Origin: a virus
Lineage: Duplodnaviria > Heunggongvirae > Uroviricota > Caudoviricetes
Reading direction: 5' to 3' (one strand)
Length of the DNA: 8,514 nt
Virus record (IMG/VR): IMGVR_UViG_2703718829_000003
The notes beneath the pieces were generated by a model, which did no database searches, was not told where the DNA came from, and saw only the letters and a program-made list of their open reading frames with translations. Made by a program: the position numbers and the translations under genes. This document shows, piece by piece, positions 1-8,514 of this stretch (within the stretch, counting starts at the first letter, position 1; the number at the start of each line of letters is the position of its first letter).

Positions 1-1053
1 ATGACGTTACCACTAAGAGATTACTATCCTATTGAGCGCGCGGCAAAGTTATTAGACTGCGATATTGATGATCTTATTCATTGGGCTGTGACAGGCTGCA
101 TTCGTATTTGTATAAAAATTGAATCTGCATATGGAGTATTAAATATCCCAGATGAAAAAGATGTGGTTAATTTCGATTGTCTGCGTAAGTTTCTGGATTC
201 AGAACCATGTAAATCACGGTTATCTGACCTTGATGCCATTTCAGAAAGGGCGGCAGAACACCATGGTTTTAATTATATAAAAACCAAGTCGAGAATTATA
301 TTTGATTCAATGTGCGAATCTCTAAGTCATTCATATGTAGCGCCCAAATTTGGTGACATAGCAATTGATACTGCATTTGCTTTGTTAAATTATTATAACA
401 GGGGGTTATATTATGGGGAAAATTATCACATATATAGTGTATATCGAATAGCAACGGATGAAAGAGCTGTGGCAGTTGTACCACCAGTATTTAAAGGTAT
501 TCAAGAAAAATACCATAAGTATTTTGTTGAAATAGGCGGTATTTTCGCTTTGGGGGGAAGTTTTTTTGCCAACTATGATTTTAATAAGAAGTTTAAAGCC
601 AACCGAATAATTAATAGCAATATTATAATTGCTTCTGACGTTGATATACATATAGGAGTAATTGTTACTGAGGATGTTTCTTTTGATATTGGTGATTTAT
701 ATATCTTAAAGAGTGATTTTTTAAAAATACAAAATGCTACAAGCTCCAATAGCGAGTTAAGAAAAGATTATGTTAATCCATTGGCAGACACTTTATATTT
801 GTGTGCGGGTAACAATATATTAAGCTCTGAGGATGGAGAGAAAGATATATGCACCAATAAAAACAATATAGAACGATTATCTAAAACAATGAAGGATTTT
901 TTTCGTGCGATGCTTGTTATTCATTATAAAGAACTCGAAAACAATCCGGTAAAACTTGCTGATATATTGACCGCGGAAGCAAAAGAGGCAGGACTCAATA
1001 TGCGCTTTGATAAAAGTACTATATCAAGATGGATTAAGGCATCATCTCAGTAA
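1..1053 (+). CDS. Hypothetical protein, 350 aa; AT-rich cargo-like gene with HTH-like segments at both termini (possible DNA-binding regulator); function unknown
   Basis: Uninterrupted 350-codon ORF starting at the ATG at position 1 and ending at TAA 1051-1053. GC is visibly lower (roughly one third by eye) than the ~50% of the rest of the window. N-terminus (ERAAKLLDCDIDDLIHWAVTG) and C-terminus (GLNMRFDKSTISRWIK) resemble helix-turn-helix DNA-binding motifs. No catalytic motif recognised. Upstream signals lie outside the window. Confidence 0.6.
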   Translation: MTLPLRDYYPIERAAKLLDCDIDDLIHWAVTGCIRICIKIESAYGVLNIPDEKDVVNFDCLRKFLDSEPCKSRLSDLDAISERAAEHHGFNYIKTKSRIIFDSMCESLSHSYVAPKFGDIAIDTAFALLNYYNRGLYYGENYHIYSVYRIATDERAVAVVPPVFKGIQEKYHKYFVEIGGIFALGGSFFANYDFNKKFKANRIINSNIIIASDVDIHIGVIVTEDVSFDIGDLYILKSDFLKIQNATSSNSELRKDYVNPLADTLYLCAGNNILSSEDGEKDICTNKNNIERLSKTMKDFFRAMLVIHYKELENNPVKLADILTAEAKEAGLNMRFDKSTISRWIKASSQ

Positions 1054-1148
1054 GACCAGCAAGCATCTTAATAAGACCTTTAATACTTGCTTTCAAAACT
1101 CCGTAAAACAAAAATCTCCCCCGAAAGTTCAGAAACATAGGGGGAAAT

Positions 1149-1469
1149 ATGACTCAATCCGCATTCATTCCACCAACTCCAGAACAGCGCCGCACCATAC
1201 TCGCCGAGTATGGTTTTGACTGCGAAGAACGCATCAGGGAAGAGAAGTGTAAAAAAATGACCACGCTTTCACGCTCCCGGCGCTGGGAACTGGAGAAGAT
1301 CGGTGCTTTTCCTCCCCGTCACTCTTTGGGGCGTTGCTCATGTACCTGGCTGTTAAGTGATGTTTTGTGGTGGCTACGTAATCCGCCAGTTATTGCCAAA
1401 GTGAATAACCCATACGAAAACGCCAAAAAGAAAAGGGAGAGGGAATCCGGTAGCGCCAGAGTTGAATAA
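1149..1469 (+). CDS. alpA: AlpA-family (phage/prophage regulatory, MerR-like HTH) transcriptional regulator, 106 aa
   Basis: Strong Shine-Dalgarno (AGGGGGAAAT) immediately upstream of the ATG at 1149. The segment RIREEKCKKMTTLSRSRRWELEKIGAFPPRHSLGRCSCTWLLSDVLWWL follows the AlpA pattern (helix - LSRS-type turn - FP.P..LG - R...W...EI..WL). The HTH helix begins upstream of the internal Met at 1257, which supports the 1149 start. Confidence 0.7.
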   Translation: MTQSAFIPPTPEQRRTILAEYGFDCEERIREEKCKKMTTLSRSRRWELEKIGAFPPRHSLGRCSCTWLLSDVLWWLRNPPVIAKVNNPYENAKKKRERESGSARVE

Positions 1470-1570: not shown

Positions 1571-1601
1571 AAAAAAAAGAAGCTCGCTAAAGCCAGCGAG
1601 C
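1571..1601 (-). terminator. Candidate intrinsic terminator for a leftward (minus-strand) transcript
   Basis: Perfect 7-bp GC-rich stem (1582-1588 GCTCGCT / 1595-1601 AGCGAGC) with a 6-nt loop, directly preceded on the + strand by an A8 run (1571-1578). This gives hairpin + U8 on the minus strand. No U-tract follows on the + strand. Confidence 0.3.
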
Positions 1602-1735
1602 CAACCAGTCAAGGATGTGCATTTAGTGCACCTGAAACCAACAATAAGAAATAATAGGCAGAAATGATTATGGCTTTTTTACTCTTAAAAATCAATCACT
1701 CAGCGCAAGCGCGCCAAAATAATTTGCAATATTGC

Positions 1736-1765
1736 TTGACTCGCTTTTTTGTCATGGCGTATCGT
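1736..1765 (+). promoter_or_regulatory. Candidate sigma70 promoter for the small-ORF/primase/integrase operon, abutted by a 10-bp palindrome
   Basis: -35-like TTGACT (1736-1741), 18-bp spacer, -10-like TATCGT (1760-1765). The perfect palindrome GCAATATTGC (1726-1735) sits directly upstream and could be an operator. Assigned by eye only. Confidence 0.3.
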
Positions 1766-1835
1766 TTGCCCGCACCTCATAAAGCGGGTGCCGGGTTTAG
1801 CAGCCTGATTGACAAAGCGGGTAGCCGCTATATTT

Positions 1836-1914
1836 CCGTAATGCGGTTTTTTTGTGCCCGTAATACCACCCTTTCCCGTATTATGGCGGGGCGTAATGGG
1901 GAGGCCGTAAGGCC
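1836..1914 (+). repeat. Five direct CGTAAT-like heptamer repeats in the untranslated leader, ending in a GNRA-type hairpin
   Basis: CCGTAAT (1836-1842), CCGTAAT (1858-1864), CCGTATT (1876-1882), GCGTAAT (1891-1897), CCGTAAG (1905-1911). The last copy lies inside GGCC-GTAA-GGCC (1903-1914), a 4-bp stem with a GUAA tetraloop. A second hairpin follows (CTGGT 1917-1921 / ACCAG 1931-1935). Confidence 0.4.
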
Positions 1915-2017
1915 TGCTGGTTTCTTTGTCACCAGTCTGCTAACCCTGTTACGTCCCGCCACCATGTTTAGCAGCGTGCTGGCGAGACTCCGTAAATTAG
2001 ACAAAGGAGCCGCCAAA

Positions 2018-2839: not shown

Positions 2840-3145
2840 ATGTCTGAAAATCAGAATGTCCGCAATATATACAAAAAAGAATACGCTGGCTTTTTCACAG
2901 AAGATTCCATTGGCAGTCTTGAGGATGTAATAAATGTTATTGCTCTTTTTTCAGCATTGACAGGTGAAATTAATACCAAAGAGCGAATTGCTGTACAAAG
3001 CGATGAAATGGAATCATTAACTAACATTCTTTATCGGGAATTACGAGCGATTAAATCAGGAATGCATCTTTCTGGCGGGATTTTTTCATGGCACAAAGCT
3101 GAAGCCGCAGGGATTGCCCGGAAACAAGAAGTAACGAGTAATTAA
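2840..3145 (+). CDS. Hypothetical protein, 101 aa; visibly more AT-rich than its neighbours
   Basis: GGGGAG (2829-2834) upstream of the ATG at 2840; clean ORF to TAA 3143-3145. By position, immediately upstream of the primase, it is analogous to the small accessory genes that precede alpha in P4-type left operons, but no sequence-level identification was possible. Confidence 0.55.
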   Translation: MSENQNVRNIYKKEYAGFFTEDSIGSLEDVINVIALFSALTGEINTKERIAVQSDEMESLTNILYRELRAIKSGMHLSGGIFSWHKAEAAGIARKQEVTSN

Positions 3146-3151
3146 TAAAAA

Positions 3152-3181
3152 CCCCACTGCAAAAGGTGCAGTGGGGGGGGG
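3152..3181 (+). promoter_or_regulatory. Perfect 10-bp-stem hairpin overlapping the primase ribosome-binding site, followed by a G9 homopolymer
   Basis: CCCCACTGCA (3152-3161), loop AAAGG, TGCAGTGGGG (3167-3176). The G-run 3173-3181 (9 G) forms the 3' half of the stem and the only purine-rich Shine-Dalgarno candidate, 8 nt before the ATG at 3190. Confidence 0.45.
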
Positions 3182-3189
3182 ATTTATAT

Positions 3190-5859
3190 ATGAAACATAA
3201 CACCAGAAAAGAGATTATTAACCGTCTTATTCGTGATTACAACTTTAAAGAAGAAAATAACTATCTTCGTTATGGTGTTTGTCCGCAATGTGGAAAGAAG
3301 GAACTGTTTACCAGTCTTGAGAGGCCGTACATCGTACACTGTGGCCGCGAAAATAAATGCGGTGCAGACCTGTTGACCAAAGAACTTTACCCGGATGTGT
3401 TTTCGTCATGGTCAGATCGCTATATCAGCACGAAAGACGATCCATACGCAGCGGCGGCAGCTTATCTTCAGGAAGCGCGCAATATTGCTGTGGAGCCACT
3501 GAAAGGGGCATTTACTCAGGAGCGATACCAGGACAAGGAAAGCGGCGAACAAGCCGCTACCGTGCGTTTTACGCTGGCTGACGGCGTGTGGTGGGAGCGC
3601 ATCATAGACCGACCGGAACGCTTCGCTCGCAAGGCGAATTTTTCCGGCAGCTACAAGGGGCTGTGGTGGGCTTATCCGGGAGCTGATTTAAGCAAGGCCA
3701 AAGAAATCTGGATTTGTGAGGGTGTCTTTGATGCCATCAGCCTTAACCAGAATGGCATTGCGGCCGTTTCTGTCATGTCTGCCGTGAACTACCCTGATAA
3801 GGCGCTGGAAGAACTGGCGAAGCTGTGCGGAGATAATCCCCGTCCGGTTATTGTGTGGGCGCTGGATAACGGGCGTGCGGGTGAGCGTTACGCGAAAAAA
3901 CATGCAGAACGCAGCGCCGAAGGCGGCTGGAGAACGGCAGCGGCGTTACCGGGTGAAAACAACAATAAACGCGACTGGAATGATTTACACATCGCCGGAA
4001 AGCTACGTGGCCATGATGTGAAAAGATACCGTTATTACGGTGATTTATTGCTGGCGAAATCTCCGAGAGATAAGGCACTAATAATGTTTTCCTTTCGTGA
4101 GCGAAAGGAATTTCATTTTCCCTTTGATAACCGTGTGTTCTGGTTCAAGCTGGATATTGAGCGCCATATGAAGGCTGTTGAGCGTGTCATTAATGAGCGA
4201 AATGTTGACGAAGATGAAGCGCGCAAAATTGCACTCAAGGAATCCGGCGCTGTAAAAGAAATCGCAAACTGTAACCCAGTGCCGCTTTATTACATTCGAA
4301 ACAATGATACGGATGAAGCATGGTATTACTTCCGCATTACATTCCCGGATGGTGCTACGGTGAAAAACACCTTTACATCAGGGCAATTAACATCCGCATC
4401 TGAATTTAAAAAACGTCTGTTGCACGTAGCAAAAGGCGGCATTTATACCGGAACGACTACGCAACTTGACGCATTAATAAAAAATGACCTTCCCGCAATA
4501 AAAGAGGTTATTGGTCAGGATTTTATCGGATACAACAAGGCCATTGGGGCATGGTTGTTTAATGATATTGCTGTTTACAAGGGTAAAACTTATGAAATCA
4601 ATGACGAAGATTATTTTGAAATTGATGGCATAAACGCAAAACCATTAAGCGAAAAACCCACATTACAGATTAACTACAAAAAACCGGATGAATTTACAAC
4701 GTCATGGGTGGAAGATCTCTGGCTGGCTTTTGGCGAAAAGGGAATTATTACCCTGGCTTTCTGGCTGGGTTCGCTGTTCAGTGAACAAATCCGGGATAAA
4801 GAAGAATCCTTCCCCTTCCTTGAAGTCACCGGGGAGCCCGGAACGGGTAAATCAACATTGATTGATTTTTGCTGGCGGCTGTGCGGTCGTGACAACTATG
4901 AAGGCGTAGATCCAACCAAAGGATCAGAGGCGGGCTGGAAGCGCACCTTTGGACAGGTCGCCGGATTACCTGTTGTTCTGATTGAAGCGGACCGGGGAGA
5001 CAATGCGCAAAAAAGAGGTGCGTTTGACTTCGATAACCTGAAAAGTCTCTATAACGGCGGTGGTATCGGCGTTCGTGGTGTTAAGGCCAACAATAACAAC
5101 ACCTATGACCCGGATTTTAAGGGCGCTATCGTAATTGCGCAGAATGCGCGGGTAAACGCCTCGCCGGCAATTATCGAGCGCCTGATACGTATATACACCG
5201 ATAAAAAACGCCATTCACCTGATACCCGACTGGCGGCGAGACGACTGGAACTCTACCCCGTCGAGAAGGTATCGGGGTTTATTCATCGGGCGGTAAGTCA
5301 GGAACGGGCGATTATGCAAACGTTCCTGGAAGTGTCGCCGGCTGAAACGGAACGCCTTTGCGGATGCGAAAATATTCGCCATCCCCGTATCGCCAAAAAT
5401 CACGCGCAACTTATCGCGCTGGTCAGGGCGCTTAAATGCGTTATTGATATCCCGGCTGAATGGCTTGATGCCACATGTCTGGAACTGGAACAAATGGCAA
5501 CAGCGCAGGTTAAAGCGGCGGCGGCTGATTTACCGGAAGTGGTGGAGTTCTGGGAAGCGTTCGACTTCCTGGACGGCATAACAAAATACGGTGTAAACCA
5601 CTACGGCAAGGGATGCTGCGAAGGGATTGCTATCAGTATTCCGCAACTGGCACAGGCAGCCGCCATTCACCGCGTGGAGATCCGAACCGATCGCGAAATG
5701 ATTGAGTTGCTCGGGGCTGGACGCTCCCGACCGTTGACAGGTCGTAAAACAATTCGTAGTGAGGTGTCCAGACAGGCAAACGCCGGAAAAGGGGTAGCCG
5801 AGGCCAGAGAGCCGGAAGTACTGAAATGCCGGATATTCAGTTACAAGGAGGGGCGTTAA
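3190..5859 (+). CDS. Bifunctional DNA primase / helicase replication protein (Zn-ribbon + TOPRIM primase domain, C-terminal P-loop helicase-type NTPase; P4 alpha-like), 889 aa
   Basis: N-terminal zinc-ribbon CPQCGKK...HCGRENKCG; TOPRIM-type acidic motifs ICEGVFDAISL and VWALDNGRAGERYA; Walker A VTGEPGTGKSTLID (nt 4831-4857) and Walker B-like VVLIEADRG. First ATG in frame is at 3190; the ORF-track start at 3166 is a GTG inside the upstream hairpin. Confidence 0.9.
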   Translation: MKHNTRKEIINRLIRDYNFKEENNYLRYGVCPQCGKKELFTSLERPYIVHCGRENKCGADLLTKELYPDVFSSWSDRYISTKDDPYAAAAAYLQEARNIAVEPLKGAFTQERYQDKESGEQAATVRFTLADGVWWERIIDRPERFARKANFSGSYKGLWWAYPGADLSKAKEIWICEGVFDAISLNQNGIAAVSVMSAVNYPDKALEELAKLCGDNPRPVIVWALDNGRAGERYAKKHAERSAEGGWRTAAALPGENNNKRDWNDLHIAGKLRGHDVKRYRYYGDLLLAKSPRDKALIMFSFRERKEFHFPFDNRVFWFKLDIERHMKAVERVINERNVDEDEARKIALKESGAVKEIANCNPVPLYYIRNNDTDEAWYYFRITFPDGATVKNTFTSGQLTSASEFKKRLLHVAKGGIYTGTTTQLDALIKNDLPAIKEVIGQDFIGYNKAIGAWLFNDIAVYKGKTYEINDEDYFEIDGINAKPLSEKPTLQINYKKPDEFTTSWVEDLWLAFGEKGIITLAFWLGSLFSEQIRDKEESFPFLEVTGEPGTGKSTLIDFCWRLCGRDNYEGVDPTKGSEAGWKRTFGQVAGLPVVLIEADRGDNAQKRGAFDFDNLKSLYNGGGIGVRGVKANNNNTYDPDFKGAIVIAQNARVNASPAIIERLIRIYTDKKRHSPDTRLAARRLELYPVEKVSGFIHRAVSQERAIMQTFLEVSPAETERLCGCENIRHPRIAKNHAQLIALVRALKCVIDIPAEWLDATCLELEQMATAQVKAAAADLPEVVEFWEAFDFLDGITKYGVNHYGKGCCEGIAISIPQLAQAAAIHRVEIRTDREMIELLGAGRSRPLTGRKTIRSEVSRQANAGKGVAEAREPEVLKCRIFSYKEGR

Positions 5860-6921: not shown

Positions 6922-7117
6922 GTTGGCCAGAACCAACGGTAACAGCAATGCAATGGTGGTCATATTGCAGTAGTGCCGCCATCAATTTTTTGCTTCCCCT
7001 GATTATCAGAAAGAGTCAAACAGTGGCGAGATACATTTCAATCACAGAGAGTTAATGAGAGTGATACAGAGTAAGTGGGTTTAATTAACATTTTAAAGGG
7101 TCGCGCTAAAGTTTGGG

Positions 7118-7431
7118 GGGGGGTGCGCAAAGCGGTTACAACGGTTACAAATTTAAAATCACTTATTTTTGCATTATATATCAATACATTATAACTGGTC
7201 GGATGAGTTACAAAAGCGGTTACAACGCGGTTACATGTAACCGTTTTGTTAGGTTACAGGCGGTTACAGGTTAAGTTTTTAATTGATTGATAATAAAGTG
7301 CTTTTTGAAACCTGTAACCGTTGTAACCGCAGTGTAACCGCAAAGCGGTTACAAACAATATCCATTAAAATCATGCTGTTAAGTGGTGTTTTTGACTGTT
7401 GTAACCGTTGTAACCGCTTTGCGCACCCCCC
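7118..7431. repeat. Iteron array (at least 13 copies of CGGTTACA / TGTAACCG) bounded by a perfect 33-bp inverted repeat; putative origin of replication
   Basis: The inverted-repeat arms 7118-7150 and 7399-7431 are exact reverse complements (GGGGGGTGCGCAAAGCGGTTACAACGGTTACAA). Octamer copies in + orientation begin near 7133, 7142, 7217, 7228, 7252 (GGTTACA only), 7261 and 7346; in inverted orientation at 7236, 7313, 7322, 7333, 7400 and 7409. A 16-bp perfect palindrome CGGTTACATGTAACCG lies at 7228-7243. AT-rich spacers separate the clusters. Confidence 0.5.
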
Positions 7432-7657
7432 ACCGGATTATGAGGCAGAGCCCCAAAACAACTGGCCTGACCTCTAACAAAAATGCAACATCAATCATTG
7501 ATTTTTTGGGGCTGTCAGTCACGGGGAGTTGCCCTGTTGTTTGGCAGAAAAATGAAGTATGTACATGCGCGGCGGGGATGGTAAAAAACGTAATACACGC
7601 GGCGCAGTTGCCATAAAAAATCTCTCAAAAGCACTCTTTTTGACGCTATTGTTCATC

Positions 7658-8230: not shown

Positions 8231-8280
8231 TGATTTGTATAACACAGCCAGCGAGTGTGACCGGCTGCGTTATTTCTGTA

Positions 8281-8514
8281 TTACGTCGTGTGGTTCTGGT
8301 CATTTGCCCAGGCCCACACATCCCCCGCTACATTGCGCCCGTTGCAGTCTTCTTCCTGCGTTTCCCCGGCCTTAATTCCCTGACTGATAAACATTCTGAC
8401 GCACTGGGAGTAGTTCATCTCTCTGTCCTGACATATCTGATTTATTTTATGGTCGATTTCGTGCGGGATACGAATACAGCGTAATACGCATCGCATTTTC
8501 TTTTGTTTTTTCAT
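8281..8514 (-). CDS. Small hypothetical protein, 77 aa; possible ribbon-helix-helix-type DNA-binding regulator; start coincides with the window edge
   Basis: Minus-strand ORF convergent with the ogr-like gene, with a 50-bp gap. Basic N-terminus MKKQKKMRCVLRCIRIPHEIDHKINQICQDREMNYSQCVRMFISQGIKAG is compatible with a beta-strand / helix / helix fold. The ATG is the last codon of the window, so the ribosome-binding site and any N-terminal extension are unseen. An alternative start is Met7 (8494-8496). Confidence 0.45.
   Translation of the reverse strand: MKKQKKMRCVLRCIRIPHEIDHKINQICQDREMNYSQCVRMFISQGIKAGETQEEDCNGRNVAGDVWAWANDQNHTT

Follow-up and report, generated by a model that had tools for sequence, protein, structure and literature searches.

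The question raised by this locus is what a strong transcription terminator is doing when it faces backwards in an element whose genes almost all run the other way. The window, by which we mean the whole 8,514-nucleotide (nt) stretch of DNA analysed here (IMG/VR record IMGVR_UViG_2703718829_000003, Caudoviricetes), is a P4-like satellite with int, alpA, an RNA immunity region of the P1/P4 type (isrK, C4 and icd) and a primase gene. An earlier interpretation made from the letters of the window alone, here called the sequence-only reading, had pointed to a minus-strand terminator downstream of alpA and had noted that no minus-strand gene lies to its right. This is borne out by the RefSeq annotation, in which the genes from the left end of the window up to position 8280 are all on the plus strand. 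We propose that the terminator ends a cis-antisense RNA of about 85–90 nt that is transcribed from the minus strand against the leader of a long open reading frame (ORF) reaching into icd. We give this reading an even chance, on the basis of sequence features and their comparison among relatives.

The sequence-only reading had described the terminator as a 7-bp stem at 1582–1601 followed by eight U residues, and as existing in the minus orientation only. A scan with strict criteria (at least 8 pairs, at least 5 G–C pairs and at least 7 T in the next 10 positions) finds the same structure, in which the 7 Watson–Crick pairs are flanked by 2 G·U pairs that form on the minus strand only, to give a stem at 1602–1581 with 5 G–C pairs. 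The strict scan identifies two sites in the whole window, 1602–1581 and 3176–3152, both on the minus strand, and 100 dinucleotide shuffles yielded a mean of 0.08 such sites. On the minus strand the stem is followed by TCTTTTTTTT, and the segment containing only the terminator folds at −13.8 kcal/mol. On the plus strand the same hairpin is followed by CAACCAGTC (with CAACCAGUC read there too), and for this reason it cannot terminate plus-strand transcription. The minus-strand hairpin and its U-tract are thus a canonical, predicted intrinsic terminator that is strong and specific to that strand. The second hairpin that had been proposed from the palindrome at 1617–1631 is likewise present in the predicted fold of the RNA.

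We assessed how these structures vary in 22 distinct versions of the locus gathered from Escherichia coli genomes, viral contigs, metagenomes and one other Escherichia genome. Fifteen of these versions have the window's own arrangement (type A). Among the 15, the terminator stem has no substitutions, three positions of its loop vary, and the A-run ranges from A6 to A9, such that 6–9 U residues are kept. In 14 of the 15 variants the second hairpin has unchanged stems and a variable loop; in the other, L012, the hairpin is replaced by a different sequence that is also capable of forming one. Mean pairwise identity is 0.60 at 1470–1519 and 0.83 at 1520–1570, rises to 0.92 across the terminator, and is 0.88 in the body of the RNA (1603–1663), 1.00 in the isrK promoter and 0.90 in C4.

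A second arrangement of the locus, which we refer to as the sister arrangement, bears directly on the function of the terminator. In these loci (L002, L003, L008, L009, L016, L025 and L027; strains STEC316, A36 and others), a hypothetical gene and a 'P2 family major capsid'-like gene are placed between alpA and the immunity block, and it is the capsid-like gene, not alpA, that directly precedes the block. Homology to the window ends at about position 1661, where the sister loci have an unrelated GC hairpin with an A-tract before it. This hairpin reads AAAAGAAAACGGCCCGCAGGAAAATCGGGCCGC on the plus strand and GCGGCCCG...CGGGCCGUUUUCUUUU on the minus strand, and is again a terminator in the minus direction only. 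The hairpin is altered once more in L008, in which a U·G pair corresponds to a C·A mismatch on the plus strand. The promoter hexamers described below and their 17-nt spacing are retained in the sister variant despite about five substitutions in the spacer. Because two unrelated hairpins occupy the same place in the same orientation, we argue that selection keeps the termination of a leftward transcript.

The strand on which the hairpins pair best can also be compared. In 7/7 versions from the window family, the minus-strand hairpin folds as well as or better than its plus-strand counterpart, by 0.1–4.3 kcal/mol. The G·U or U·G pairs of the minus strand (two in the window and one in L008) are A·C or C·A mismatches on the plus strand. 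This wobble asymmetry, which is small in the window family and large in the more distant relatives considered below, points to selection acting on the minus strand.

Two further observations concern the capsid-like gene of the sister arrangement. Genes with the same annotations as the two sister genes are present in the window's own element at its far right end beside mazEF, where the capsid-like one is longer. We considered whether the sister hairpin had been carried along with the 3′ flank of the capsid-like gene, and rejected this explanation because in the window's element that flank has a different, plus-strand terminator.

The promoter that had been assigned to the RNA, TTGATT-17-CATAAT, was recovered with all of its elements in place by our scan of the minus strand (1695–1667; 9/12 consensus matches). 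Sites that satisfy this loose criterion are no more frequent in the window than chance would give (15 found, 13.5 expected). In a sigma-70 weighted matrix built on consensus frequencies, whose ranks are approximate, the site ranks third of approximately 85,000 positions, directly behind the isrK/C4 promoter. It lies around 65 nt upstream of the terminator in the fitting orientation, and a start site near 1659–1660 would be expected from the position of the −10 hexamer. That hexamer is identical in 22/22 distinct variants, with variation in the positions flanking it (1666 and 1673), and the −35 hexamer is TTGATA in one variant. The interval between the minus promoter and the isrK/C4 promoter, which are arranged back to back, contains an invariant block, AAATCAATCACTCAGCGCAA, and a perfect 10-bp palindrome, GCAATATTGC (both within 1688–1735); judged from sequence, either could be an operator or an UP element.

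The terminator could instead serve as an insulator that stops stray antisense transcription, originating in the divergent promoter region or in minus-strand genes at the right end, from entering alpA and int, with any short RNA being a functionless by-product. An element that is almost wholly plus-strand and whose only two strong terminators face backwards in intergenic gaps is what this explanation would predict, and minus-strand genes do exist at the right end (8281–8514, with mazEF beyond). It would also account for an RNA body that is not especially conserved and is wholly different between the two arrangements. We nevertheless consider it unlikely. A promoter of rank 3 is found around 65 nt upstream of the terminator, and one of rank 16 around 40 nt upstream of the second terminator; close variants keep the stems of the second hairpin while its loop varies; and the RNA of more distant relatives retains, besides the terminator, a 5′ stem-loop for which insulation has no need.

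If a minus-strand RNA is made, what does it act on? The sequence-only reading took it to be antisense to read-through from alpA. The overlap with such a transcript stands, and a sharper target is the leader of the long ORF at 1664/1670–2191. That a sense transcript crosses the region is suggested by the lack of a plus-strand terminator there. The candidate RNA would be fully complementary to 1571–1659, a segment that includes a Shine–Dalgarno (SD)-like AGG at 1656–1658 and leaves out the start codons at 1664 and 1670.

The long ORF, annotated as a 175-amino-acid (aa) 'Icd-like' protein, runs across the isrK/C4 promoter and on through the two RNA genes, finishing in the reading frame of icd; its Icd-like domain corresponds to residues 127–169. 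The frame is open in every variant and in relatives of 77–82% nucleotide identity. ATG 1670 is the only start codon present in all versions, L012 and L015 having ATA at 1664. In a count made by hand across 1664–1735, 7/7 codon differences between the two arrangements alter the amino acid. The ORF is probably translated and, because the peptide upstream of icd is not conserved, the pattern suggests that it is the act of translation rather than the product that matters. In P4, the long eta ORF spans PLE, seqA and CI; the upstream late transcript is the only one from which it is translated, and CI-dependent termination is prevented when ribosomes translate it (PMC10111431). The long ORF of the window likewise spans a promoter and an immunity RNA, as in the nested eta/kil design of P4.

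The minus strand might alternatively encode a small protein, either a 28-aa hydrophobic ORF at 1695–1609 or the 11-aa MHILDWLARWL. The former has a hydrophobic core, and the AUG of the latter lies within the second hairpin with an SD-like AGGUG 6 nt before it. However, the 28-aa ORF, which starts with TTG, begins upstream of the predicted transcript and is reduced to 14 codons in the sister variant, and the short ORF has 9–13 codons depending on the version and is missing altogether from the sister variant. A minus-strand small-protein or type I toxin gene was accordingly rejected: neither candidate ORF is conserved, the 28-aa one being the only minus-strand ORF in the region, and we regard a coding function of this kind as extremely improbable. 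A small plus-strand ORF at 1462–1590, which overlaps the alpA stop codon and ends in the hairpin, was also discarded, as it is broken by compensating frameshifts in L005.

We extended the comparison to more distant relatives, which are satellites resembling phage-inducible chromosomal islands (PICIs) that have isrK/C4 at 77–82% identity. Their gene order is alpA, small minus-strand genes (YlcI/YnfO-like), a plus-strand promoter with operators, a first icd-like gene and isrK/C4, with the last of these enclosed by a long ORF, itself overlapping the first icd-like gene at its stop codon. A search with the first icd-like protein identified 344 viral contigs, 80 of which were fetched for comparison of the leader. 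The leader of the first icd-like gene has a hairpin of which at least seven sequence versions occur and which, when the minus strand is read, has a U-rich tract after it. In 20/20 distinct versions this hairpin folds much better on the minus strand (mean z-score −4.9 versus −3.0 for the plus strand). The corresponding minus-strand RNA, found in L028–L112 (for example, L029:1163–1250 and L037:1120–1207), would be around 85 nt long with two hairpins.

An alignment of 20 of these minus-strand sequences provides support for the structure. Compensatory changes are seen in 8 of 23 pairs and 98.3% of the cells are paired, a result reached by none of 500 shuffles and approached by none of the controls in which the alignment was slid. 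When the same cells are mirrored on the plus strand, 84.3% pair, and G·U cells number 64 on the minus strand versus 0 on the plus strand. The minus-strand RNA folds with z-scores of −3.1 to −4.7, compared with +0.7 and −1.4 for the plus-strand leader, which is no better than shuffles. The promoter-like minus-strand site of the relatives, TTGTGT-17-TATGAT, falls within the opening codons of the icd-like gene; its rank is 4–5 in L029 and L037, and in L093 the two hexamers are the same despite seven substitutions in the spacer. The predicted RNA spans the SD of the icd-like gene as well as its AUG; in the folds of L029 and L037, the anti-SD sits in the loop of the 5′ hairpin. As modelled, the RNA of the relatives is laid out as a classic cis-antisense regulator. 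It matches no Rfam family, and no paper describing it was found in literature searches.

The same relatives make it possible to ask whether the hairpins act in the plus-strand RNA, for example as a stabilising or processing element of the long-ORF leader or of the alpA message's 3′ end, with the A-run being incidental. The plus strand does form the 7-bp core hairpin and the palindromic second hairpin (z-score −2.5 across 1571–1660), and the region certainly lies within any read-through transcript from alpA. This explanation is nonetheless very unlikely. In neither the window family nor the relatives (64 to 0) does the plus strand offer wobble pairs, which are confined to the minus orientation; every version places the U-rich tract 3′ of the hairpin solely in that orientation; and the plus-strand leader of the relatives has no folding propensity beyond that of shuffles.

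A further explanation prompted by the gene order of the relatives is that divergent minus-strand genes have been deleted from the window, leaving a promoter and a terminator that are without function. In PICI-like relatives, small minus-strand genes, YlcI/YnfO-like ones among them, do separate alpA from the icd region, and the N-terminus of the long ORF (KINHSAQAR) is loosely like the NHTTHPQGR of the relatives' second icd-like gene, which hints at deletion and fusion. However, the terminator of the divergent genes adjoins alpA in the relatives and is a separate element from the leader hairpin. Moreover, the stem in the window family is invariant in 15 variants whose flanks fall to 60–83% identity, and an independent, unrelated minus-only terminator has been kept in the sister arrangement. 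We therefore judge a relic to be improbable.

To connect the window to the relatives, we used a covariance model, R1, built from 20 PICI-like sequences. On the minus strand of the sister loci, R1 gives borderline scores at the syntenic site (13.8 bits, E 0.05; 12.1 bits, E 0.16). The R1 alignments run past the proposed −10 and, on this basis, transcripts of the window family could begin upstream of 1659, although the weighted matrix predicts no good promoter for the minus-strand RNA further upstream. The approximately 90-nt RNA of the sequence-only reading has been upheld in part: there is comparative support for a transcript ending at 1571–1580, and its 5′ end is uncertain.

Several observations weigh against a cis-antisense RNA in the window. 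The −10 hexamer contains the conserved ATG 1670, so its conservation cannot be credited to a promoter alone, and that of the −35 hexamer is confounded by the invariant block noted above, which may have another role. The predicted RNA ends 4–10 nt before the start codons, which would leave the downstream half of the ribosome-binding site uncovered. Its body is not unusually conserved relative to its neighbours, and the whole 89–90-nt molecule (−20.9 kcal/mol) folds only modestly better than shuffles, with a z-score of approximately −1.5. The minus strand of the window at 1572–1677 does not score significantly with R1 (6.6 bits, E 5.5), and pairwise nucleotide similarity between the window leader and the PICI leader is not significant. 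P4 itself is without the feature, having around 36 nt between vis and PLE and no backwards-facing terminator. Finally, the intergenic region is carried, always in the same context, by 57–66 of 5,426 complete E. coli genomes, and none of the carriers is recognisable as a standard laboratory or model strain.

Searches for an existing description of the RNA were negative. With Rfam 15, at both gathering and permissive thresholds, no family was found on the minus strand of the site in the window, five relatives or P4. Terminator-driven noise aside, no family reaches E ≤ 10 on the region. The sub-threshold minus-strand matches there, to suhB (19.3 bits, threshold 41) and Trp_leader (18 bits, threshold 41), are driven by the terminator. 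No annotated RefSeq feature lies under the matches to the intergenic region in the 57–66 E. coli genomes, and literature searches, which did not look for transcriptome data by strain name, found no RNA reported at the locus and no satellite transcriptome covering it. The segment 1571–1735 has no homologue in the phage or plasmid collections, and a search for targets in trans found no direct or inverted repeat of 1571–1660 elsewhere in the window. If real, the RNA would be a phage-type cis-antisense RNA with an intrinsic terminator in a region that matches no Rfam family or RefSeq feature.

From the computed terminator, promoter-like site, complementarity, conserved open frame and comparative pattern, we infer the following course of transcription, leader pairing and regulatory outcome. 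Transcription would start near 1659–1660 from TTGATT-17-CATAAT and stop at the terminator (1602–1571). The RNA would pair with alpA read-through transcripts across 1571–1659, covering the weak SD-like region of the long ORF, and the pairing would either block translation or make a duplex for cleavage, by analogy with P22 sar, lambda OOP and P4 eta/kil. Without ribosomes moving across isrK/C4, the C4-dependent shut-off of icd and the replication operon would hold, as in P4, and the satellite would stay silent.

Immunity of the P4/P1 type in satellites, through the CI/C4 RNA, is a textbook example of repression by RNA. To our knowledge, the override of this repression by read-through from the alpA/vis promoter is understood only for P4. 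If our proposal is correct, an antisense RNA against the leader of an ORF whose translation has to cross the immunity RNAs would be a further brake on satellite induction, independent of the first. It would account, too, for why elements that are transcribed in one direction have strong terminators facing backwards. The window family is rare, but the related PICI-like leader occurs in 344 viral contigs and the principle could therefore be widespread. More tentatively, and at somewhat less than an even chance, we suggest that AlpA-type enterobacterial satellites, both PICI-like and P4-like, share a class of cis-antisense RNA directed against the start of the first icd-like ORF. Translation of that ORF, or of a long ORF fused or coupled to it, proceeds across the isrK/C4 genes, and on this view the antisense RNA would determine if ribosomes can override the C4-dependent shut-off. 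Such an RNA would be the third in the P1/P4-type switch, with the RNA of the window as a derived member and a unit at 3242–3145 as a second example.

The element is integrated in bacterial chromosomes, several E. coli strains having segments that are 100% identical to the window. In the JP538 copy the element sits between gcd and hpt, and its gene order is integrase, 350-aa hypothetical, AlpA-family regulator, 'Icd-like' gene, small ORFs, toprim primase, second integrase-like gene and Ogr/Delta-like gene, all on the plus strand. The right end, from 8281 to 8514 in the window and on to mazEF beyond it, has minus-strand genes. The candidate RNA falls in the 270-nt gap between alpA and the isrK/C4 promoter, which is directly upstream of the isrK-like and C4 RNAs and is identical in all variants. 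In the phage and plasmid collections, the sole segment with a match is 1759–1976, to P1/P7 c4, and there is a weak Rfam match to the a1b1 target on the plus strand at 1759–1811. The window thus has a P1/P7-type immunity region inside a P4-like satellite. Coordinates are collected in Table 1.

Table 1. Features at and around the candidate RNA (window coordinates).
Feature	Position	Strand	Basis or remark
350-aa hypothetical protein gene	1–1053	+	RefSeq annotation, JP538
alpA (Pfam Phage_AlpA)	1149–1469	+	Source of the read-through transcript that the candidate RNA would oppose
U-tract UCUUUUUUUU	1571–1580	−	Predicted 3′ end of the RNA; plus strand is A8GA
Predicted terminator hairpin, 9 pairs, 4-nt loop	1581–1602	−	Scan and folding
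U/G-rich single-stranded linker AUCCUUGACUGGUU	1603–1616	−	Fold; just 5′ of the terminator
Second hairpin GUGCA/UGCAC, 5-nt loop	1617–1631	−	Fold; plus strand is GTGCA-tttag-TGCAC
Predicted unstructured 5′ tail	1632–1659	−	Complements the plus-strand leader, including SD-like AGG (1656–1658)
Long ORF, annotated 175-aa 'Icd-like'	1664/1670–2191	+	Likely target; in frame with icd ATG 2018
Putative −10 CATAAT	1667–1672	−	Overlaps plus-strand codons ATT ATG (ATG at 1670)
Putative −35 TTGATT	1690–1695	−	17 nt from the −10
isrK/C4 promoter TTGACT-18-TATCGT	1736–1765	+	Scan; weighted-matrix rank 2; back to back with the minus promoter
isrK-like RNA	1772–1853	+	Rfam, 52.1 bits, above gathering score
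C4 antisense RNA	1879–1966	+	Rfam, 79.7 bits, above gathering score
Toprim primase gene	ATG 3190	+	RefSeq annotation, JP538

Other features of the window were noted in the course of the analysis. The strongest terminator in the window is the minus-strand site at 3176–3152, with 10 pairs followed by UUUUUAUUAA. It belongs to a second backwards-facing unit (3145–3242, minus strand) with a promoter-like TTGTAA-17-AATAAT (3242–3214, rank 16), for which the predicted RNA of around 60 nt would run antisense to the primase SD and start codon (ATG 3190; fold z-score −5.6). The hairpin of this unit is retained in L015 by way of compensatory changes, and an unrelated hairpin takes its place in L016, L019 and L020. 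Immediately before the primase start, a G-run at 3174–3182 shares positions with both the terminator stem and the likely SD; it is G9 in the window, G8 in JP538 and GGGGTGGAG in other variants. The difference in length among otherwise identical copies could reflect homopolymer slippage or sequencing error.

Upstream of alpA (1114–1148, plus strand), the SD of the gene (GGGGGA) can pair with the preceding UCUCCCCC, which would sequester the ribosome-binding site. Downstream of alpA and to the left of the terminator, a second copy of GGGGGAGA is present at 1540–1548, and would be an anti-SD on the minus strand beyond the terminator. Within the operon, a terminator-like plus-strand hairpin at 2811–2832 (8 pairs, then AGTTTTTATG) stands directly before an ORF starting at 2840 and could, from its sequence, be an internal attenuator. 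Direct and inverted copies of GCGGTTACAA, among them 36-nt arms with 97% complementarity, are packed densely into 7115–7434 between the second integrase-like gene and the Delta-like gene, and look like the iterons of a replication origin.

Among known and predicted systems, the two-hairpin RNA of the PICI-like satellites has the same position as the candidate (with alpA upstream and isrK/C4/icd downstream), the same strand and the same combination of hairpin and U-tract. Also shared are a U/G-rich stretch 5′ of the terminator and a promoter-like site inside the 5′ end of the plus-strand ORF. The RNA of the window differs in having another small hairpin and an open 5′ tail, where the RNA of the relatives spans SD and AUG alike and has a 5′ stem-loop with the anti-SD in its loop. 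The relatives therefore provide a well-supported analogue and a possible ancestor, the membership of the window in their family being not proven. We also considered a role for the RNA as a decoy for C4 through a conserved motif beside the hairpin, and rejected it because, in a comparison by hand, the pairing amounts to about 9 bp with a bulge in the relatives and to almost nothing in the window.

The sar RNA of phage P22 is an RNA of approximately 70–90 nt that is transcribed against the direction of the immunity operon, has an intrinsic terminator at its 3′ end and can pair with a leader between cistrons and the ribosome-binding site there. It is encoded in the immI region, and its function has been reviewed as a secondary layer of control (PMC5415839). 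The candidate is like sar in being a short RNA that opposes an immunity operon, with an intrinsic terminator and complementarity to a leader and ribosome-binding site, all of which are predicted here. The two have no relation in sequence or in Rfam, the RNA of the window stops short of the start codon, and the operon is C4–icd rather than arc–ant.

Lambda OOP is a 77-nt cis-antisense RNA with its own promoter and intrinsic terminator that acts through RNase III on the 3′ part of the message of an upstream regulator (PMC5415839). The RNA of the window would similarly be antisense to the 3′ untranslated part of the alpA message. It differs in that OOP overlaps the coding region of cII, whereas the RNA of the window ends about 100 nt after the alpA stop codon, and there is no homology between the two.

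The system closest in place is that of P1 C4 and P4 CI with their isrK-like (seqA/a1b1) target, which occupies the same locus; the gene order in P4 is likewise vis, PLE, isrK-like and C4. The isrK-like and C4 RNAs are on the plus strand (1772–1966) and are processed from the leader, whereas the candidate is on the opposite strand, upstream of their promoter, and matches neither of their models. Despite these differences, C4 and the candidate RNA would both govern read-through into icd and the replication genes.

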